This document shows, piece by piece, positions 32,614 to 38,898 of a stretch of DNA of 64,000 bases. This DNA comes from a virus. Under the pieces are notes generated by a model. The model saw nothing but the letters and a program-made list of their open reading frames with translations. It was not told the DNA's origin and did no database searches. Every line of letters begins with the position of its first letter. Within the stretch, counting starts at the first letter, position 1. The translations under genes were made by a program, and so were the position numbers. The stretch covers positions 72,103 to 136,102 of IMG/VR virus record IMGVR_UViG_3300047476_000521. One strand, written 5' to 3'.

Positions 32614-32689
32614 GCTGCTGTAGCTCAGTTGGTAGAGCAACTGATTAGTAATCAGTGGGTCGGGAGTTCGATTCTCTCTAGCAGCACCA
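32614..32689 (+). tRNA. tRNA-Thr(AGT), with rare A34 anticodon
   Basis: Full cloverleaf; anticodon stem ACTGA/TCAGT, loop TT-AGT-AA; encoded CCA. Confidence 0.9.
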
Positions 32690-32694
32690 GAATT

Positions 32695-32945
32695 CCACGG
32701 CAGACTTTGAATCTGTTTGTGGATTTGCAGAGAGCAAATAGCCGATGTGCATTCGATATGTTTCCGTAGAATGCATCCCGTCAAGGGTTGATAGGAGAGG
32801 GAAACACTGACTGCGAATAAGTGTATATCGGCCATTCCGGGTGTACATTTAGTTTAACAGGAATGGTGTAGTCTCATGTTGTCCGTCGGCATGGGATAAG
32901 ATTAAATTGGGTTGGAGATAATCCCCTGATAGGGCGGACCAATTT
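32695..32945 (+). ncRNA. Putative multi-hairpin ncRNA A, containing a tRNA-Gln anticodon-arm copy
   Basis: Consecutive hairpins (CCACGGCAGA/TCTGTTTGTGG; ATTTGC/GCAAAT; GCCGATGTGC..TTCG/CGAA..GTATATCGGC; CCATTCC/GGAATGG) between two tRNAs. Confidence 0.55.
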
Positions 32946-32946
32946 C

Positions 32947-33021
32947 GCTGGTAGGTCGGCAGGATGTCGAAACGCTCTCATAAGGCGTCTAAGGTTGGTT
33001 TGATCCCAACTACCAGCACCA
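32947..33021 (+). tRNA. tRNA-Met(CAT), atypical D arm
   Basis: GCTGGTA/TACCAGC acceptor, loop CT-CAT-AA, CCA. Confidence 0.8.
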
Positions 33022-33184
33022 ATGTTACTGCGTCAACGGATTAGACTACGGTTCGAAACGTTGACAGTAATGTGTTGTAAAGTTAGCAAAGGTGACCGGA
33101 GAGACCGTAAAAAGGTCTCGTATGGGATCCAGGTTCCGGTTGCAAAGTCCGGTCATTATGCTAATCCGTTGACGCAGTAACATT
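33021..33184 (+). ncRNA. Putative ncRNA B closed by a perfect 24-bp inverted repeat
   Basis: AATGTTACTGCGTCAACGGATTAG (33021-33044) / CTAATCCGTTGACGCAGTAACATT (33161-33184); internal TGACCGGA/TCCGGTCA and GAGACC/GGTCTC stems. Confidence 0.65.
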
Positions 33185-33186
33185 AT

Positions 33187-33262
33187 GGACCGATAGCTCA
33201 GTTGGTAGAGCAGCCGACTCTTAATCGGCTTGTCGTGGGTTCGATCCCCTCTCGGTCTACCA
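33187..33262 (+). tRNA. tRNA-Lys(CTT)
   Basis: Cloverleaf, loop CT-CTT-AA, CCA. Confidence 0.93.
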
Positions 33263-33264
33263 TA

Positions 33265-33348
33265 TTGATACACAACAACGGGACGCCGACCTCAAGGAAG
33301 CGGGTATGGAGATAGCTACCAGATACGTGGAGAGGCGTTGTGTATCAA
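33265..33348 (+). ncRNA. Putative ncRNA C closed by a 12-bp inverted repeat
   Basis: TTGATACACAAC/GTTGTGTATCAA spanning the Lys-Lys spacer. Confidence 0.55.
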
Positions 33349-33357
33349 GTTTTATAT

Positions 33358-33433
33358 GGACCCATAGCTCAATAGGTAGAGTACTGGACTTTTAATCCAT
33401 GTGATCTCAGTTCAAATCTGAGTGGGTCTACCA
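33358..33433 (+). tRNA. tRNA-Lys(TTT)
   Basis: Cloverleaf, loop CT-TTT-AA, CCA. Confidence 0.9.
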
Positions 33434-33484
33434 AAATTTATAAATTTATAAATAAGCAAAAGGCGTCAGTTTATGAGGTATTAG

Positions 33485-33877
33485 ATGCATTGCTTAAATT
33501 GTGGTAAAGAAATAAAAGTTGGAAAATATTGCAATAATAAATGTCAAGGCGAACTCAGAACCAAAAAACTATTACAAGAATGGTTTGATGGAAACGATGA
33601 AGGTTATAAAGCAGGATTGAGGATTAAATCGCATATAAGAAACTATATGTTAGAGAAATCTAATTATAGTTGTTCAGAATGTGGTTGGGATAAAATCAAT
33701 CCAATTACAGGTAAAACGCCATTAGAAATCGATCATATAGATGGTGATTGTAAAAATTGTAAAGAAGATAACCTTAAAGTTCTTTGTCCAAACTGTCATT
33801 CATTGACGCCTACTTGGAAAGCTTTGAATAAAGGCAAAGGAAACAAAGAAAGACATAAGTACTCTAAACTAATATAG
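33485..33877 (+). CDS. HNH endonuclease within the tRNA array
   Basis: CxxC, LEIDHIDG...N....NL..LCPNCH; TATAAATA at 33447-33454. Confidence 0.88.
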   Translation: MHCLNCGKEIKVGKYCNNKCQGELRTKKLLQEWFDGNDEGYKAGLRIKSHIRNYMLEKSNYSCSECGWDKINPITGKTPLEIDHIDGDCKNCKEDNLKVLCPNCHSLTPTWKALNKGKGNKERHKYSKLI

Positions 33878-33886
33878 GTGAGTGTC

Positions 33887-34087
33887 ATGAAGCGCAAGTA
33901 TACATTTATGGAAATGGTTGATCTTTCGTATTCTGAACATTATCGTGAGTATCTTCGCCATCTTTGGTGGCCTCATGGATATCGTCATAATAAAGAAGTT
34001 CAAGAAAAGATTCTAAACAACTTGGTTAGGGATCTTTTTGGATTTGATGAATACCTTGATCAGTATTTCTTGAGTCTTGCAGTATAA
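33887..34087 (+). CDS. Hypothetical protein
   Basis: ORF after the HNH gene. Confidence 0.45.
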   Translation: MKRKYTFMEMVDLSYSEHYREYLRHLWWPHGYRHNKEVQEKILNNLVRDLFGFDEYLDQYFLSLAV

Positions 34088-34098
34088 ATAAAGTTTTT

Positions 34099-34174
34099 GG
34101 GGGATTAGCTCAGTTGGGAGAGCGTCTGATTTGCATTCAGAAGGCCATCGGTTCGATCCCGGTATCCTCCACCA
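34099..34174 (+). tRNA. tRNA-Ala(TGC)
   Basis: Cloverleaf, G3:U70, CCA; TATAAATA at 34083-34090. Confidence 0.95.
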
Positions 34175-34176
34175 AG

Positions 34177-34312
34177 TTTCGGGTGCATACGTAGCCACAT
34201 ACCTGTCAGCACGTAGCGACAGGAGCGCATTTGTGGTGCAAGTATATACGGCTAGCCACGGCGCTGCACAAATGTGGAGAAGAGACGAATGTGTGTCCTC
34301 GTCTGCCCGAAA
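34177..34312 (+). ncRNA. Putative ncRNA D (multi-branch, possible pseudoknot)
   Basis: Closing TTTCGGGT/GCCCGAAA; internal CCTGTC/GACAGG, CATTTGTG/CACAAATG, AGACGA/TCGTCT. Confidence 0.55.
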
Positions 34313-34321
34313 ATTAACATT

Positions 34322-34397
34322 GGGGATGTAGCTCAATTGGGAGAGCGCAGCACTGTCACTGCTGAGGTAGCGAGATCGAAACTCGTCATTCCCGCCA
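34322..34397 (+). tRNA. tRNA-Asp(GTC)
   Basis: Cloverleaf, loop CT-GTC-AC, G73, CCA. Confidence 0.92.
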
Positions 34398-34406
34398 TTT
34401 TTGAAT

Positions 34407-34490
34407 ATGGGCGTCTATGGGGGTTCGACTCCCCAGCGGGCTTGCGACATAGATGAAAAAACAATGTTAGTTGCAACTGGCATTGCCCAT
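34407..34490 (+). ncRNA. Putative ncRNA E with an isolated T-arm
   Basis: ATGGGC/GCCCAT closing stem; GTCTATG/CATAGAT enclosing GGGG-TTCGACT-CCCC; AATGTTAGT/ACTGGCATT hairpin. Confidence 0.55.
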
Positions 34491-34503
34491 TTATTTTATG
34501 GTC

Positions 34504-34594
34504 TATAGAAAGATACATTCAGACATTTCCAATGCCGCTACTAAGAGAGTTGGAAACTGTTAGTAGGTCAGCATTCTGAGTGTATCTTTCTATG
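34504..34594 (+). ncRNA. Putative ncRNA F: 20-bp stem enclosing an H-type pseudoknot
   Basis: TATAGAAAGATACATTCAGA/TCTGAGTGTATCTTTCTATG (2 G-U pairs); TTTCCAA/TTGGAAA hairpin whose loop CTACTAA complements downstream TTAGTAG. Confidence 0.6.
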
Positions 34595-34602
34595 GTCCCA
34601 TA

Positions 34603-35172
34603 TCAGACTCGTTCCCAACCGTATTTTTTATACGCAGGAACTTGATTTCTTTTTATTGTTTTAAATTTACCATTTTTAGTTATTTGAACTTGACTATAAG
34701 TAGGATTTGGGTTTTTGGTTCTTGTTTTAGCTGCAGCTAAACCGCCTTTTCTTCCTCTTTCTACTCTTTCTTCTTTGGAAATTTTGTTAAATGTTTGTCT
34801 GTCTCTATATTTTTTACATTGCCATAACAGTTTCATCGAATCAGATATAGATTTTCTTCTTCTATCCTCTGATACAGAGTCTTTTAAACATACTCTTGGT
34901 GATGATATTGCCTGGTTATAGAATTTAGGGTTAGAAACTGCTTTAACTCTTTGAAGAAACTTTGTTTCGTGGTTACGAGCTTCTTCGTATGTATTAAATT
35001 TTCTTCTAATTTTAAATAAAAAGTTTTCAACACCTTCAGACTCAATAAGTCTTTGGATTATTTTTGATGAAGAAAAGTATTGAACGCCAATATCATTTAT
35101 AGAAGATTTTCTGACACCGTAATAAATAATACCAGTAGTGATATGGACTATAGTGTAAGTGTACGCTTTCAT
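34603..35172 (-). CDS. GIY-YIG (SegB-like) homing endonuclease, antisense within the tRNA array
   Basis: YTY-x10-YYGVR, YFSSS, E..FL....A..NPKFYN; TATAAATA upstream on the minus strand. Confidence 0.85.
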   Translation of the reverse strand: MKAYTYTIVHITTGIIYYGVRKSSINDIGVQYFSSSKIIQRLIESEGVENFLFKIRRKFNTYEEARNHETKFLQRVKAVSNPKFYNQAISSPRVCLKDSVSEDRRRKSISDSMKLLWQCKKYRDRQTFNKISKEERVERGRKGGLAAAKTRTKNPNPTYSQVQITKNGKFKTIKRNQVPAYKKYGWERV

Positions 35173-35222
35173 ATTTTGCCTCGTTTGTATCTGCTGCTAT
35201 TATTTATAAGTTTTATGATCTT

Positions 35223-35314
35223 GGGCGTGACGCTGGGTAGCGGGGAGGCTCTTATAAAGCCTTTAGCATCAGATGGGTGTTCTTCAGTGGGTTCGAGTCC
35301 CACCATGCCTACCA
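35223..35314 (+). tRNA. Non-canonical tRNA with TAT anticodon (Ile-like) and long variable arm
   Basis: GGGCGTG/CATGCCT acceptor, AGGCT-CTTATAA-AGCCT anticodon arm, AGCATC/GGTGTT V-arm, GTGGG-TTCGAGT-CCCAC, CCA; reduced D arm. Confidence 0.75.
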
Positions 35315-35319
35315 ATTAT

Positions 35320-35410
35320 GGAGAGTTGGCCGAGTGGTCGAAGGCGGCTCACTGCTAACGAGTTGAACCCTAACACGGTTCCGAGAGTTCGAATCTCTCA
35401 CTCTCCGCCA
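35320..35410 (+). tRNA. tRNA-Ser(GCT)
   Basis: Type II cloverleaf, G73, CCA. Confidence 0.93.
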
Positions 35411-35411
35411 C

Positions 35412-35439
35412 TTGACTTTTTGACAGAAAACGGTATAAT
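35412..35439 (+). promoter_or_regulatory. Sigma70-like promoter inside the tRNA array
   Basis: TTGACT-16 nt-TATAAT; similar elements at ~35791, ~37355, ~37783 and ~39346. Confidence 0.6.
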
Positions 35440-35455
35440 GGTAATATGAGTTTAT

Positions 35456-35530
35456 GGCTCCTTCGTCTATCGGTTAGGACACAAGACTTTCAATCTTGGA
35501 AGAGGGGTTCGATTCCCCTAGGAGCTACCA
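35456..35530 (+). tRNA. tRNA-Glu(TTC)
   Basis: Cloverleaf, loop CT-TTC-AA, CCA. Confidence 0.93.
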
Positions 35531-35531
35531 A

Positions 35532-35756
35532 ATGAAATATCTACACGAAAAATATCCCTTTACTTTTGGTGTGATATTTTTTATAATATATTTCGCATTG
35601 GACTTTATTGATGCTAGATTTTTCATACCAAGAAAGATCGCTGAAGCAAGACAATGTGAGTTAGATGATAAGTGTAGAACTTGGATAAATATACACACGG
35701 AGGATGGCGTGCATGGTGCACACACAGTCTTGAAAACTGCGCCACCGAAAGGTTGA
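35532..35756 (+). CDS. Possible small membrane protein overlapping tRNA-Ser(TGA)
   Basis: MKYLHEKYPFTFGVIFFIIYFALDFI hydrophobic segment; 3' end runs into the tRNA. Confidence 0.35.
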   Translation: MKYLHEKYPFTFGVIFFIIYFALDFIDARFFIPRKIAEARQCELDDKCRTWINIHTEDGVHGAHTVLKTAPPKG

Positions 35757-35782
35757 TGGTTCGATTCCTTCATCCTCCGCCA
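35699..35782 (+). tRNA. tRNA-Ser(TGA)
   Basis: GGAGGAT/ATCCTCC acceptor, loop CT-TGA-AA, V-arm, G73, CCA. Confidence 0.85.
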
Positions 35783-35827
35783 CTTTTTTATTGACATCTT
35801 GACTAAATAAAGTATACTAGAGTTTAT

Positions 35828-35903
35828 TGCGGGTGGGAGGTATTAGTATCTTGTCGGTTTCATACGCCGATAGAAGTGGGGGCAGTTCCCACACCCGCTT
35901 CCA
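35828..35903 (+). tRNA. Initiator-like tRNA-Met(CAT) with atypical T-loop
   Basis: U1:U72 mismatch then GCGGGT/ACCCGC; loop TT-CAT-AC; T-loop GGCAGTT; U73-CCA. Confidence 0.7.
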
Positions 35904-35981
35904 GTATAGATACATATTCCTCAAACTGGATCCGCTATGCCGAAAGGTGCGAGGACAATGTGTGTCTTATGTGCCGTGCTT

Positions 35982-36076
35982 GGCCCGTCACGGGATATAA
36001 ATCTACGGGGTGCATGTCGATAGATGCGAGCAGTCCATTGCTTGTATTGTGCTATCTGACCGCTAACGGGCCTCCA
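35982..36076 (+). ncRNA. CCA-terminated tRNA-like RNA G with a Cys-type acceptor stem but no cloverleaf
   Basis: GGCCCGT/ACGGGCC-T-CCA followed by the GTTTAT trailer seen after real tRNAs; no T-loop or canonical anticodon arm. Confidence 0.55.
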
Positions 36077-36082
36077 GTTTAT

Positions 36083-36156
36083 ATCGGTGAAGTGTTACGG
36101 TAGCACATCTGTCTCCAAAACAGAGGGCGAGGGTTCGACTCCTTCCGCCGGTGCCA
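36083..36156 (+). tRNA. tRNA-Trp(CCA)
   Basis: Cloverleaf, loop CT-CCA-AA, G73, CCA. Confidence 0.92.
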
Positions 36157-36163
36157 GTTTTAT

Positions 36164-36240
36164 CGGGGTGTAGCTCAGTCTGGTAGAGTGCTTGCTTTGG
36201 GAGCAAGATGTCGTAGGTTCGAATCCTGCTACCCCGACCA
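36164..36240 (+). tRNA. tRNA-Pro(TGG)
   Basis: Cloverleaf, C1-G72, loop TT-TGG-GA, CCA. Confidence 0.95.
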
Positions 36241-36242
36241 TT

Positions 36243-36420
36243 TGATGTTGAATTGTTTCAATGGAAAGGTCTGTTGAAACACAGTTGGAGTCGAGATTTC
36301 AACCGCCAGGGCAGGCGTTCCAACAGCCCGACTGTTATGTGCCTTCCAGAGACCGTCTGCGTAGCGGGCGGAACCTTGCACACTAGGTTTTCTGTTTCCT
36401 GGGGAAGAAAAACAGACAGA
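36243..36420 (+). ncRNA. Putative multi-hairpin ncRNA H
   Basis: TGTTTCAA/TTGAAACA, GTTGGA/TTCAAC, CCGTCTGC/GCGGGCGG, TCTGTTT/AAACAGA hairpins in the Pro-Val spacer. Confidence 0.45.
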
Positions 36421-36425
36421 ATTAT

Positions 36426-36501
36426 GGACGATTAGCTCAGTTGGGAGAGCAACGCTTTTACACAGCGAAGGTCGGCAGTTCGAACCTGTCATCGTCTACC
36501 A
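36426..36501 (+). tRNA. tRNA-Val(TAC)
   Basis: Cloverleaf, loop TT-TAC-AC, CCA. Confidence 0.92.
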
Positions 36502-36502
36502 A

Positions 36503-36602
36503 TTCCAGTGAATCGCTGTGGACGCACAGAGGGGTTGCTGGCAGGGATACGCAGTAGTAGTATAAATGACCAGGGGGTAAACCTGCTACTAAACGATCCC
36601 GT
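36503..36602 (+). ncRNA. Putative ncRNA I
   Basis: CCAGTGA/TTGCTGG with CTGTG/CACAG; GGGAT/ATCCC enclosing AGTAGTAG/CTGCTACT. Confidence 0.45.
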
Positions 36603-36610
36603 AAGTTTAT

Positions 36611-36687
36611 GCCTCTGTAGTCCAACTGGAAGAGATGCCTGACTTAGAATCAGGAGGTTGTAAGTTCGAATCTTACCAGGGGCACCA
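36611..36687 (+). tRNA. tRNA-Leu(TAG), short variable loop
   Basis: Cloverleaf, loop CT-TAG-AA, 5-nt V-loop, A73, CCA. Confidence 0.88.
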
Positions 36688-36697
36688 TTATAAATAT

Positions 36698-36773
36698 GCT
36701 TGTTTGGTGTAGCTGCTGCGCACGTCCGTCTGAAGAACGGAAGGATCTAGTTGAATTCTAGGAACAAGCACCA
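36698..36773 (+). tRNA. tRNA-Phe(GAA), divergent D/T loops
   Basis: GCTTGTT/AACAAGC acceptor, loop CT-GAA-GA, CCA; TATAAATA at 36689-36696. Confidence 0.8.
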
Positions 36774-36795
36774 TCCTACGAAAAGGAAATATATC

Positions 36796-37008
36796 ATGAA
36801 CAACGAAAAAACGTTGTTTAGATTGAGAGCGGGTATTGTAGGAAAAGATAAGACTGTATCGGTATACTGCGATATGCCTGTGAAACCGAGAGACAACTGG
36901 ATCAATCTTGATCCCGGCGTTTATACATATGAGAGTTTGTTGTGTGAACGCATGTTGATTATTGTAAAGAATAAGAGTTTCCACGCTTCTTCTATGCCTA
37001 ATGGGTAG
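36796..37008 (+). CDS. Hypothetical protein
   Basis: AAGGA RBS before ATG 36796. Confidence 0.5.
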   Translation: MNNEKTLFRLRAGIVGKDKTVSVYCDMPVKPRDNWINLDPGVYTYESLLCERMLIIVKNKSFHASSMPNG

Positions 37009-37031
37009 ATAGCGCACCAGGAAACTTACTT

Positions 37032-37108
37032 GCCCTCGTAGCCCAACCGGCAGAGGCAGTTGACTCAAAATCAACCAAGTGTCAGTTCGAATCTGACCGA
37101 GGGCACCA
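37032..37108 (+). tRNA. tRNA-Leu(CAA), short variable loop
   Basis: Cloverleaf, loop CT-CAA-AA, CCA. Confidence 0.88.
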
Positions 37109-37109
37109 T

Positions 37110-37186
37110 GTCTCTGTAGCTCAACTGAATAGAGCATCGGTCTTCGAAACCGAGGGTTGTGGGTTTGAATCCTACCAGGGACTCCA
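37110..37186 (+). tRNA. tRNA-Arg(TCG)
   Basis: Cloverleaf, loop CT-TCG-AA, CCA. Confidence 0.88.
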
Positions 37187-37192
37187 GTTTAT

Positions 37193-37270
37193 GTTGCGGT
37201 GTGTCCGGAACGGTTACGGCAAGGTCTGCAAAACCTCTTCATGTGGGTTCGAATCCCATCCGCAACTCCA
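37193..37270 (+). tRNA. tRNA-Cys(GCA)
   Basis: GTTGCGG/CCGCAAC acceptor, loop CT-GCA-AA, U73, CCA. Confidence 0.87.
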
Positions 37271-37274
37271 ATTT

Positions 37275-37348
37275 GCTGGGGTAGTGTAGTGGTAGCACCT
37301 GAGGTTGTGGACCTCAGAGTCCAGGATCGATACCTGGTCCCAGTACCA
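37275..37348 (+). tRNA. tRNA-His(GTG) lacking G-1, with A73
   Basis: Loop TT-GTG-GA; base preceding the acceptor stem is T; discriminator A. Confidence 0.88.
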
Positions 37349-37403
37349 AATTGGTTGACTTTTATGTCAATCTAGGGTAATATATGTGAACAGTAAGAAT
37401 TAA

Positions 37404-37479
37404 TGTCCCTTAGCTCAGTTGGTAGAGCGCAGTCCTGATAAGACTGAGGTCGCTGGGTCGGAGCCAGCAGGGACAACCA
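37404..37479 (+). tRNA. tRNA-Ile(GAT), atypical T-loop
   Basis: Loop CT-GAT-AA; T-loop GTCGGAG; CCA. Confidence 0.88.
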
Positions 37480-37481
37480 GT

Positions 37482-37598
37482 TATCCCGTTTTCTAGATAC
37501 ACGGGAGAGACCTAACGAGAATAACAGCAGGGAAAGCTCGTGAATATCGGATTGTTGACTGCTTTAGCTAAAGGGCTAAACCGATAAGGTGTATGGAA
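37482..37598 (+). ncRNA. Putative ncRNA J
   Basis: TCCCGT/ACGGGA, ACGAG/CTCGT, TATCGG/CCGATA, TTTAGC/GCTAAA stems; possible ATACAC/GTGTAT long-range pairing. Confidence 0.45.
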
Positions 37599-37601
37599 TA
37601 T

Positions 37602-37693
37602 GCGTGGACGGCAACGACGGTGGTGTTGCGACGGACTGTAAATCCGTTCCCTTTGTGGTAACATTGGTGGTTCGAATCCATCTCCACGCACCA
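37602..37693 (+). tRNA. tRNA-Tyr(GTA)
   Basis: Type II cloverleaf, loop CT-GTA-AA, CCA. Confidence 0.9.
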
Positions 37694-37699
37694 GTTTAT

Positions 37700-37773
37700 T
37701 CGGGGATAGTTTAATGGTAGAACGTCAGACTTTGAATCTGATTGTCGGGGTTCGAGTCCCTGTCCCCGATCCA
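37700..37773 (+). tRNA. tRNA-Gln(TTG)
   Basis: U1-A72, loop CT-TTG-AA, CCA. Confidence 0.92.
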
Positions 37774-37819
37774 AAAAAGAACTTGACTTTGTGACTAAAT
37801 AAGTTACAATATGTTATAT

Positions 37820-37895
37820 TCCCGTGTAACTCAGTTGGTAGAGTAGGTGACTGTTAATCACTTTGTCGGAGGTTCGAGTCCTTCCTCGGGAGCCA
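37820..37895 (+). tRNA. tRNA-Asn(GTT)
   Basis: U1-A72, loop CT-GTT-AA, G73, CCA. Confidence 0.92.
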
Positions 37896-37963
37896 GTTTA
37901 GGTTGGTCGCTATAAATAGACTCGTGAGGGCCCACGGTTAGTCCTCTCTTTTGGAGAGAGAAA

Positions 37964-38251
37964 ATGAAAAAGATTATCTTATCGTTATCATTGTTTCTTG
38001 GTTTGAGTATGCAACCAGCAAACGCCCAGTATTGGGGAGGTTATGGCTACGGTTATGGTTATAATGCTGCTGCTGGTTTAGCTATTGGTGCTCTGGCTGG
38101 AGCAGCTATCGCTAGTGCTGCCAATCCATATTGGAATTATGGTAGACCAGGATATGGGTATTATCCTCCGTATGGTGGTTATTATGCTGTCCCTGTTGCT
38201 CCTCCTGCGTATTATTATCGCCCAGGACGTGCATACTACTACGGTTACTGA
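37964..38251 (+). CDS. Secreted Tyr/Gly/Pro-rich protein
   Basis: Signal peptide MKKIILSLSLFLGLSMQPANA; AAAGLAIGALAGAAIA glycine zipper; TATAAATA at 37911-37918. Confidence 0.7.
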   Translation: MKKIILSLSLFLGLSMQPANAQYWGGYGYGYGYNAAAGLAIGALAGAAIASAANPYWNYGRPGYGYYPPYGGYYAVPVAPPAYYYRPGRAYYYGY

Positions 38252-38252
38252 T

Positions 38253-38663
38253 ATGAAAAACATTGTTATTGCTCTCATGTTGGTATCAACTCCAGCTGCA
38301 GCCAGTAATTATAACATTGATGTTTGTAATAACTGTAATATCAATGTTCAAAAGAAAGTTATTAAAAAGGTTGTAAAGACTGTTCCTGTTGCAATTGAGT
38401 ATGTTCCTGCTGGTCCTGGACCAATCAGTTCTACCATTGCAGTTCCAGTAGCAGTTCCTGTTCAACCTGTACCGTTGGTTCCTGTATATAACTCTGTACC
38501 AACACCAGAAGCATCGAATATCTATTCGCCTCCAGGATATCCTACTAACGTTCCTGTGGCAACTTCTGGTAACTGTGCCATGTATATTGATCCTTATGAT
38601 TTATTTGGTCAACTTTTTGGTGGAGCAGATTTAGTTCAGAGTTGTTTAGTTCCAGCGTATTAA
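38253..38663 (+). CDS. Secreted Pro/Val-rich protein
   Basis: Signal peptide MKNIVIALMLVSTPAAA. Confidence 0.65.
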   Translation: MKNIVIALMLVSTPAAASNYNIDVCNNCNINVQKKVIKKVVKTVPVAIEYVPAGPGPISSTIAVPVAVPVQPVPLVPVYNSVPTPEASNIYSPPGYPTNVPVATSGNCAMYIDPYDLFGQLFGGADLVQSCLVPAY

Positions 38664-38664
38664 T

Positions 38665-38740
38665 GCCGGTATAGCTCAGACGGTAGAGCAACTCACTTGT
38701 AATGAGAAGGTCGTGGGTTCGACTCCTGCTGCCGGCACCA
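38665..38740 (+). tRNA. tRNA-Thr(TGT)
   Basis: Cloverleaf, loop CT-TGT-AA, CCA. Confidence 0.95.
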
Positions 38741-38741
38741 T

Positions 38742-38816
38742 TGGGGATTAGTTTAACTGGCAGAACGTCTGACTCTGACTCAGGTAGTTGAGGTTCGAAT
38801 CCTTGATCCCCATCCA
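38742..38816 (+). tRNA. tRNA-Gln(CTG)
   Basis: U1-A72, loop CT-CTG-AC, CCA. Confidence 0.92.
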
Positions 38817-38824
38817 AAAGTTAA

Positions 38825-38898
38825 GCGGTAGAAGTGTTACGGTAGCACGATAGGCTTCCACCCTGTAAGCGTGGGTTCGACTCCCACTTACCGCTCCA
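38825..38898 (+). tRNA. tRNA-Gly(TCC)
   Basis: GCGGTAG/TTACCGC acceptor, loop CT-TCC-AC, U73, CCA. Confidence 0.92.

Follow-up and report, generated by a model that had tools for sequence, protein, structure and literature searches.

Candidate small RNA modules between the tRNA genes of a T4-like phage, with uneven support across the set

Long spacers between the transfer RNA (tRNA) genes of a phage from the IMG/VR collection resemble a set of small RNA genes. The sequence analysed, called the window here, is the last 64 kb (64,000 nucleotides, nt) of the virus record IMGVR_UViG_3300047476_000521, which has 136,102 base pairs (bp) and is 82% complete according to CheckV. Its large genes match the PHROGs families of terminase large subunit, tail sheath, portal and major head protein, and the phage is therefore taken to be a T4-like myovirus; the sequencing runs that hold it are chiefly freshwater metagenomes, in some of which it is abundant. 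ARAGORN finds 27 tRNA genes at 32614–38898, all on the + strand. An earlier note on the window had pointed to about ten structured non-coding RNA candidates among them, and the ten stretches that it named were divided into 11 modules numbered from S1 to S11 (S5 into S5a and S5b, S7 into S7a and S7b). The finding is largely real but uneven across modules. We give a probability of about 0.55 to the reading that the modules form a group of accessory genes for small RNAs, of the kind known from T4 as rnaC and rnaD, embedded in tRNA precursors and released from them, some being built from tRNA parts. Aligned homologues show that S2, S3 and S4 are selected for base-pairing of the + strand and, more weakly, S5a and S9. 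Co-transcription with the tRNAs, release and stability of the modules are, we infer, most likely.

Composition, boundaries and folding of the spacers

The GC content is 42.6–51.0% in the eight long tRNA-tRNA gaps that are free of open reading frames (ORFs) and 0–28.9% in the 13 gaps of at most 55 nt, with 38.7% for the window and 53.7% for the tRNAs. S5a, at 48.9%, fits the claim that the spacers are GC-richer than the flanking ones; S5b, at 37.4%, is not GC-rich and is the exception to it. The modules begin 0–4 nt after the CCA of one tRNA and stop 3–11 nt before the next one, and the closing stems of S2, S3 and S4 lie near tRNA ends, as stated in the earlier note, whose coordinates are accurate. 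Every module ends just ahead of a shared AU-rich tRNA leader of 3–7 nt: TAT at positions −3 to −1 precedes 17 of the 27 tRNAs, GTTTAT is present at seven and GTTTTAT(AT) at two more (examples are at 35450–35455, 36077–36082, 36605–36610, 37187–37192 and 37694–37699). The modules were also said to be distinct from one another, and blastn indeed finds no mutual similarity.

It had been claimed that the spacers fold end-to-end. This describes S2, S3, S4, S5a, S5b, S7a and S7b, seven of the 11, while S1, S8, S9 and S11 are strings of hairpins. Folding energy was expressed as a z score against dinucleotide shuffles; it is clearly beyond chance for S2 (z −9.2), S5b (−7.1) and S3 (−3.8) and borderline for S5a (−2.8), S7b (−2.6), S1 (−2.4) and S9 (−2.4). 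We grade the support as strong for S2, S3 and S4 and as moderate for S5a, S5b, S7b and S9; S1, S7a, S8 and S11 fold weakly and have no diverged homologue sequence. As a count of supported RNAs, the estimate of about ten was too generous, with three modules graded strong and four moderate.

Comparative evidence for base-pairing

Relatives were collected by means of an 87-amino-acid ORF just upstream of the array, which gave 78 IMG/VR loci (41–89% amino-acid identity) and 41 metagenome loci; pattern scans added more. The spacers of the window were searched by nhmmer against 140 loci (1.41 Mb; single loci carry L numbers below), with 2 matches for S1 (L082 and L083), 19 for S2, 4 for S3, 12 for S4, 1 partial match for S5, 3 for S9 and none for S7, S8 and S11. 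The INPHARED phages gave only tRNA matches and no relative in near and distant search modes, and a 134-amino-acid ORF downstream, used as the anchor in IMG/VR, yielded no relative. The earlier note had asked for a covariation check in homologues. Compensatory changes are present in S2, S3 and S4 and less surely in S5a and S9; S1, S7a, S8 and S11 offer no diverged sequence for it.

S2 (165 nt, 33022–33186, + strand) consists of a perfect 23-bp terminal stem (33022–33044 with 33161–33183), an invariant T-loop-like hairpin at 33048–33061 and a variable interior. The stem starts directly 3′ of the CCA of tRNA-Met and stops 3 nt before tRNA-Lys. Covariation was scored in 8 distinct sequences over the terminal stem and the first hairpin, i.e. 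26 pairs and 205 cells, of which 99.5% are paired; changes on both sides occur in 10 of the 26 pairs (22 cells). The observed percentage paired, number of pairs changed, number of cells changed and covariation score are each reached by 0 of 500 column shuffles, and registers slid by 1–3 columns pair at only 26–51.5%. The 8-nt loop of the hairpin and its closing stem (13 columns) are invariant in 8/8 sequences, in contrast to 10 stem pairs that vary. Compensation holds the terminal stem, whereas the subfamilies are too different for most of the interior to be aligned.

Strand preference was part of the earlier claim, which said that G-U pairs favour the + strand. Minimum-energy folds of the 11 modules do have 55 G-U pairs on the + strand and 25 on the − strand, the + strand has the lower energy in 9/9 gaps, and its z is slightly better in 7/9. 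Since G exceeds C in 11/11 modules and shuffles move likewise, this single-sequence signal is largely one of composition. The S2 alignment gives firmer ground, with 12 G-U cells to 1 non-pair: such cells would be A-C on the other strand, and therefore the + strand is favoured as the folded one.

Could the S2 stem serve the DNA and not an RNA? Inverted repeats might bound miniature mobile elements of DNA, or form single-strand DNA hairpins with a part in recombination or replication; S2 is a perfect 23-bp terminal inverted repeat with sharp boundaries, found at different sites, and minus-strand folds are nearly as stable by z. Mobile ends fit poorly with its single copy in the 136-kb record, with filled and empty S2 sites that compare without target-site duplication, and with the lack of a transposase, integrase or reverse transcriptase nearby (RVT_1 is absent). 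The 12:1 ratio of G-U over non-pairs is specific to one strand, the transcribed one, and in S3 and S4 the inner helices covary as well as the ends. We regard an element acting at the DNA level as very improbable.

Two other candidates for S2 were rejected. A 52-amino-acid ORF fills S2 exactly; homologues have no more than 39 stop-free codons and their frames vary. A bistable switch was considered because an internal copy can pair with the left arm, which it does at 7/7 positions in the window sequence only; 6/7 pairs form in five other sequences and, as we read the alignment, 4 and 5 of 7 in L019 and L100. A left-arm change is compensated in the right arm and not in the internal copy, and therefore the terminal stem is the selected fold.

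S3 (95 nt, 33263–33357, + strand) has a 12-bp closing stem (33266–33277 with 33336–33347) and three inner helices. Among three sequences (window, L005 and L148) both sides change in 3 of 28 predicted pairs, one other change gives G-U, and four marginal pairs are broken, each in one sequence. S4 (147 nt, 34175–34321, + strand) lies upstream of tRNA-Asp and is closed by 8 bp (34177–34184 with 34305–34312). Its diverged homologue is 86% identical and is one and the same sequence in 8 IMG/VR contigs; a 20-mer scan of IMG/VR found S4 only in these contigs. Compared with this homologue, 3 of 40 predicted pairs are changed on both sides, two others to G-U, and none is broken. A further diverged copy of S4 is present in sequencing run X5.

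S5a (88 nt, 34405–34492, + strand) is predicted to form a three-way junction. It contains a copy of a tRNA T arm at 34418–34433 (S5 nt 21–36), a 16/16-nt match of 32.2 bits against 26.3 for the best of 30 shuffles, and a partial homologue in L071 retains the T-arm hairpin and the stem that encloses it. The last hairpin (34462–34485, + strand), with 10 pairs, a loop of 4 and a T-rich tail, is an intrinsic terminator by consensus match, and this part of S5a looks like an ordinary terminator. S5b (91 nt, 34504–34594, + strand) is a hairpin with a near-perfect stem of about 20 bp that adjoins the 3′ end of a minus-strand homing endonuclease gene. Its + strand fold has 2 G-U pairs, both stem imperfections being U-G on that strand, and nhmmer finds no S5b homologue in the 140 loci. 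S9 (109 nt, 36502–36610, + strand), between tRNA-Val and tRNA-Leu(UAG), is a two-domain module with a 72% identical homologue in the same slot in L124, L125 and L133. Its 5′ hairpin keeps 13 pairs, one with a change on both sides, and the 3′ domain differs. It is important to note that the support for S3, S4, S5a and S9 is flattered, because the structures were predicted on the same small alignments.

Gain and loss of modules among related phages

The modules behave as cassettes that are gained and lost between relatives. In the window S2 is flanked by tRNA-Met and tRNA-Lys(CUU); in L019, L020 and L043 it follows a promoter-like spacer after tRNA-Ser(GCU) and precedes tRNA-Ala; and in L123–L137 its neighbours are a CCA-ended tRNA-like RNA and a tRNA whose anticodon is GUU. 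In run X2 a loose end of 25 nt places an S2-like arm after tRNA-Cys, a hint of a fourth context. The same Ser-Ala spacer is also found in L017 and L015, there lacking S2, with the boundary of the indel at the base of the stem. S3 occupies another slot of the array in L005 and L148. In an abundant relative in run X2 (depth 158) position 35898 is joined to 36081 with four other letters between, so that S7 is exactly absent, and on a contig of run X5 that includes S4, about 87 nt lead from tRNA-Asp to tRNA-Ser(GCU), with neither S5 nor the Seg-like gene present.

L082 and L083 follow the window at 99.9% identity for 1267 nt, as far as the end of tRNA-Lys(CUU). Beyond it another 111-nt element fills the S3 slot, tRNA-Lys(UUU) is diverged, there is no HNH gene and identity in the next ORF falls to 82.5%. 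This switch from near-identity to difference after tRNA-Lys(CUU) is why we place a recombination junction at the tRNA gene. In T4, SegB reportedly recognises the TpsiC motif of tRNAs and promotes co-conversion across the tRNA region (PMC2330249).

Similar spacers are common in the relatives, where 150 unique tRNA-tRNA gaps of 40–400 nt form 72 clusters, 42 of them GC-rich (at least 42%) and at least 60 nt long; some of the GC-rich spacers are tRNAs missed by ARAGORN. A family of 136–143 nt after tRNA-Cys is clearly a structured RNA: in 9 sequences 97.6% of 338 cells are paired and both sides change in 12 of 38 pairs, a count reached by 6 of 500 shuffles, while none of the 500 reaches the percentage paired, the cells changed or the covariation score. 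Junction nucleotides are invariant in the Cys>Ile family. Rfam on eight related loci (92 kb) returned 143 matches, all 143 to tRNA.

A separate family of 105–112 nt in the relatives is tRNA-shaped, with an 8-bp acceptor stem, a T arm, ACCA, a long extra arm and a non-canonical, variable 'anticodon' loop. Of its 29 predicted pairs 12 covary, and it receives no ARAGORN call and no Rfam tRNA match at the gathering score. Members are at L082:3539–3649, L019:6251–6355, L017:5856–5961, L124:6018–6129, L020:13153–13264 and L050:14190–14298, and in L082 and L083 the family fills the slot that S3 holds in the window.

The turnover of modules bears on a reading in which they have no job at all, being inserted or left-over sequence selected only to fold on itself, so that neighbouring tRNAs are spared mispairing or blocked processing; the longest stems (S2 with 23 bp, S5b with about 20 bp) may in a variant of it be RNase III entry sites that split the precursor. 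A patchy presence, as seen among close relatives in which clean absences carry no visible cost, is what such sequence would show. So is S2, whose closing stem is compensated while most of its interior is unalignable, and paired columns are in general more conserved than unpaired ones. Elsewhere in this array many tRNAs are only 1–10 nt apart and do without such a spacer. Sequence that only has to fold is harder to reconcile with the S2 hairpin loop and closing stem, invariant in all 8 sequences, with the invariant junction nucleotides of the Cys>Ile family and with the retention of S2 in at least three array contexts; a streamlined phage genome would be expected to lose such sequence. RNase III requires a certain stem length, for which those of S3 and S4 (12 and 8 bp) should be too short. 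Folding without a further function is, in our view, rather unlikely for the set; S1, S7a, S8 and S11 may be such filler instead.

tRNA-derived parts and modules with weak folds

Borrowed or mimicked tRNA parts are found in S1 (anticodon arm), S5a (T arm) and S7b (acceptor stem and CCA). S1, a 257-nt multi-hairpin spacer between tRNA-Thr(AGU) and tRNA-Met (32690–32946, + strand, GC 45.1%, z −2.4), is identical to the tRNA-Gln(UUG) anticodon arm over 16/16 nt at 32701–32716 (its nt 12–27), scoring 32.2 bits against 24.3 for the best of 30 shuffles. Its matches among the loci are confined to the near-identical L082 and L083. In the metatranscriptome run X24 one contig covers 32600–32936 with no differences, i.e. 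tRNA-Thr and nearly all of S1; this is a weak hint only, because such libraries can hold DNA. The other pieces of X24 on the array are tRNA-only with 7–10 differences each and are therefore taken to come from other organisms, which makes them uninformative on the expression of other modules; array parts left uncovered in X24 are no evidence of silence. A circular (back-joined) form was not seen among the listed joints of this run, and contigs cannot exclude one.

S7b (95 nt, 35982–36076, + strand, z −2.6, 1 of 200 shuffles folding as well) has a 7-bp acceptor-like stem, a U, an encoded CCA and then the GTTTAT leader of the next tRNA, with no cloverleaf. ARAGORN does not call it and the Rfam tRNA model does not match it at E ≤ 10; diverged homologues occur in runs X4 and X5. 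Its neighbour S7a (78 nt, 35904–35981, + strand) is closed by a hairpin, has z −2.0 with 6 of 200 shuffles folding as well, and has no nhmmer homologue among the loci. The same holds in the 140 loci for S8 (185 nt, tRNA-Pro to tRNA-Val, 36241–36425, + strand, GC 48.1%, z −1.4) and for S11 (122 nt, tRNA-Ile to tRNA-Tyr, 37480–37601, + strand, GC 42.6%, z −0.4), which is the weakest candidate. Scanning IMG/VR for exact 19- and 20-mers of S8, S7 and S1 returned nothing save a chance S8 match in an unrelated GC-rich contig (L144).

Such parts might be remains. The modules, chiefly those that are orphans, could be debris of decaying tRNA genes, recombination scars and homing endonucleases, with GC content and stems inherited from tRNAs. 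The 16-nt arms in S1 and S5a and the acceptor-like stem with CCA in S7b would be natural traces of this, as would the GC-rich spacers of relatives that are missed tRNAs; the array has two homing endonuclease genes, S5 is absent jointly with one of them in the run X5 relative, and T4 SegB targets the TpsiC motif and drives co-conversion in the report cited above (PMC2330249). Four window modules fold weakly and have no homologue sequence. Neutral decay, on the other hand, gives no compensatory changes, and these are seen in 10 pairs of S2 and in 3 pairs each of S3 and S4, with almost none broken. Even at E ≤ 10 the tRNA model matches none of the window's spacers, and the matches to tRNA parts are no better than shuffles in 9 of the 11 spacer segments scored, S8 having none. 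For these reasons debris appears quite unlikely as the general explanation.

Transcription, release and possible roles

Good promoter-like sites on the array are confined to short AT-rich spacers, with one at 35412–35439 (+ strand, 11/12 consensus positions) and others at 35791–35818, 37355–37383 and 37783–37810, with 11, 9 and 10 of 12 positions. The region has 18 such sites against 16.3 in shuffles, which is no excess, and none lies inside a GC-rich module. Terminator-like sites on the + strand are likewise absent from the modules, and none separates one module from another, except for the last hairpin of S5a, which stands ahead of the convergent endonuclease gene.

Having no promoter or terminator of their own, the modules would be transcribed within polycistronic tRNA precursors. 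Their start 0–4 nt after an encoded CCA suggests that 3′ maturation of the preceding tRNA sets the 5′ end of the module, and their end 3–11 AU-rich nt before the next tRNA suggests that the RNase P cut there sets its 3′ end. The closing helix of 7–24 bp that joins both ends would then protect the released RNA, as for T4 rnaC and rnaD. Released RNAs may act in trans as accessory RNAs, and some might, at a guess, mimic tRNA parts that bind the host's tRNA-directed proteins.

A more specific proposal is that the array is an RNA counter-defence island, in which RNAs made of tRNA parts decoy tRNA-cleaving defence nucleases or tRNA-handling enzymes of the host and cassettes are swapped between co-infecting phages. 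The decoy parts would be the tRNA-Gln anticodon arm of S1, the T-arm or T-loop hairpins of S5a and S2 and the acceptor stem with UCCA of S7b, and swapping would proceed by recombination at tRNA genes, aided by the resident homing endonucleases. We hold this extension to be quite doubtful.

Several results weigh against small RNA genes as the explanation of the whole set. The z scores of S7a (−2.0), S4 (−1.8), S8 (−1.4) and S11 (−0.4) are indistinguishable from chance; 30 coding 150-mers of the window used as controls have a mean z of −0.88, with 17% below −2; and in relatives the mean z is −1.64 for GC-rich spacers (n=36) and −1.49 for AT-rich ones (n=22; p=0.33), so that the former fold no better, for which reason folding energy was rejected as a test of the class. 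The tests of S3, S4 and S9 use two or three sequences with structures predicted from the same alignments, and for S1, S7a, S8 and S11 no diverged homologue sequence was recovered, so that their structures are predictions from a single sequence. Even in S2 the measure of further pair types is unexceptional (151 of 500 shuffles). Unpaired columns are less conserved than paired ones (0.70 vs 0.81), which fits selection for folding alone. The RNA evidence consists of the one S1 contig, which DNA carry-over could explain, and comes from assembled contigs without read-level 5′ and 3′ ends. Lastly, T4 rnaC and rnaD have no nhmmer match at E ≤ 1 in the window array or in any of the loci.

Known families and closest systems

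The spacers fall in no known Rfam family. At the gathering score Rfam 15 gives 22 matches in the window, all to tRNA, and on the array at E ≤ 10 no match lies inside the ten stretches; neither ARAGORN nor the tRNA model RF00005 (E ≤ 10) finds anything there. The lone Rfam overlap is a minus-strand match with E=2.8 at 33161–33259, mostly on tRNA-Lys.

Small RNA genes in a tRNA array have a precedent in T4. To our knowledge no function was ever assigned to rnaC (species 1) and rnaD (species 2). The earlier note had mentioned two stable RNAs from the T4 tRNA cluster, and this is borne out by NC_000866, in which both are annotated 'small, stable RNA': rnaD (119 nt) starts 1 nt after tRNA-Arg, rnaC (139 nt) follows 6 nt further, and the cluster holds segB. 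The likeness extends to several points, since in both cases non-tRNA RNAs (about 120–140 nt in T4) lie on the tRNA strand of a T4-type myovirus, flush with their neighbours, in a cluster that also carries a Seg homing endonuclease gene. T4 rnaC folds with a perfect T arm (z −4.6) and resembles S5a, in which a tRNA T arm sits within a fold closed at its ends. The z of rnaD is only −0.8 although its stability is proven, and therefore an RNA with a weak z can still be stable. The systems differ in that T4 has two RNAs at one end of the cluster, whereas here about ten are scattered through the array and vary between close relatives; in addition, stability is proven for the T4 RNAs only.

The Y RNAs of bacteria and phages, which mimic tRNA (PMC4201824), were considered for S2. 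YrlA (RF02553), bound by Ro60/Rsr, has a long stem of the 5′ and 3′ ends and an inner module with a T-loop-like hairpin, a general build that S2 shares. The YrlA model matches no spacer, its sub-threshold matches falling on tRNA genes with a best score of 26.3 bits over tRNA-Trp and tRNA-Pro against a gathering score of 69, and the TROVE/Ro60 gene (PF05731), usually adjacent to Y RNA genes, is absent from the 136-kb record, 82% complete, with control genomes positive. S2 as a Y RNA was thus rejected for want of a TROVE gene and of a YrlA model match. A retron msr-msd reading was rejected as well, no reverse transcriptase (PF00078, RVT_1) being present in the record.

GOLLD and ROOL RNAs have conserved, ornate folds and ROOL, like GOLLD, is several hundred nt long, whereas the window modules have 78–257 nt, are mutually unrelated and have no Rfam match. 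PMC12286853 describes both as structured RNAs that phages encode, frequently close to tRNA islands and with unknown function, and gives many GOLLD members a length of more than 800 nt. The catalogue of Fremin et al. 2023 (PMC10690425) lists 8,495 candidate structured RNAs from IMG/VR intergenic regions, 'tRNA-like' candidates among them; it draws on the same collection, and the portion of its text that was available describes no arrays interleaved with tRNAs. Some of the window families may already be listed in it. Bacterial tRNA mimics are the subject of a 2026 preprint. Our literature search, with most subscription journals and supplements outside it, found no paper on groups of structured RNAs placed among the tRNAs of T4-like arrays, other than T4 species I and II.

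Other features of the array

Two homing endonuclease genes lie in the array. The gene at 33485–33877 (+ strand) matches PHROG HNH endonuclease families (best E 2e-15) and is below the cut-off of Pfam HNH. The Seg-like gene (GIY-YIG type) at 34603–35172 (− strand) matches the homing endonuclease family phrog_314 (E 5e-15), with 19.3 bits for Pfam SegE_GIY-YIG, under the 25-bit cut-off.

Five of the 27 ARAGORN tRNAs (Ile-UAU, both Met-CAU, Ser-UGA and Cys) are under the gathering score of the Rfam tRNA model; they lie at 35223–35314, 32947–33021, 35699–35782, 35828–35903 and 37193–37270. The Ile-UAU tRNA, of 92 nt, has a long extra arm and a weak match to the transfer-messenger RNA model, and the tRNA-Sec model scores the Ser-UGA and Cys tRNAs better than the tRNA model does. 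A tRNA-Thr with the anticodon AGU (32614–32689) is present besides tRNA-Thr(UGU) at 38665, and relatives have Thr(AGU) as well. In one relative ARAGORN reports a tRNA with an undetermined two-letter anticodon between its two Lys tRNAs (L100:2796–2872).

Between tRNA-Phe and tRNA-Leu there is a 70-amino-acid ORF (36796–37008, + strand) that has a good ribosome-binding site and matches no family of PHROG or Pfam; the final ~57 nt of the gap are found again ahead of Leu tRNAs in relatives. An AT-rich ORF at 35533–35756 (+ strand) begins directly 3′ of tRNA-Glu, has a hydrophobic N-terminus and overruns into tRNA-Ser(UGA); it may encode a small membrane protein or be spurious. The 68-nt leader (37896–37963) of a Gly/Tyr-rich ORF at 37964 is kept in 35 nhmmer matches among the loci and is an ordinary 5′ untranslated region with a ribosome-binding site, outside the RNA set.

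Implications

A kind of RNA gene known from T4 would be present here about ten times in a single array, and related freshwater T4-like phages have at least 42 further GC-rich spacer clusters, some of which are missed tRNAs. Modules turn over quickly among close relatives with their stems held by compensating mutations, and this is comparative material that T4 alone never gave. Small constructs such as tRNA-Met-S2-tRNA-Lys are open to processing and binding tests. If the modules only fold on themselves as filler, they show how polycistronic tRNA precursors tolerate insertions. If some of them are mimics of tRNA parts, they would make up a new class of phage accessory RNA.

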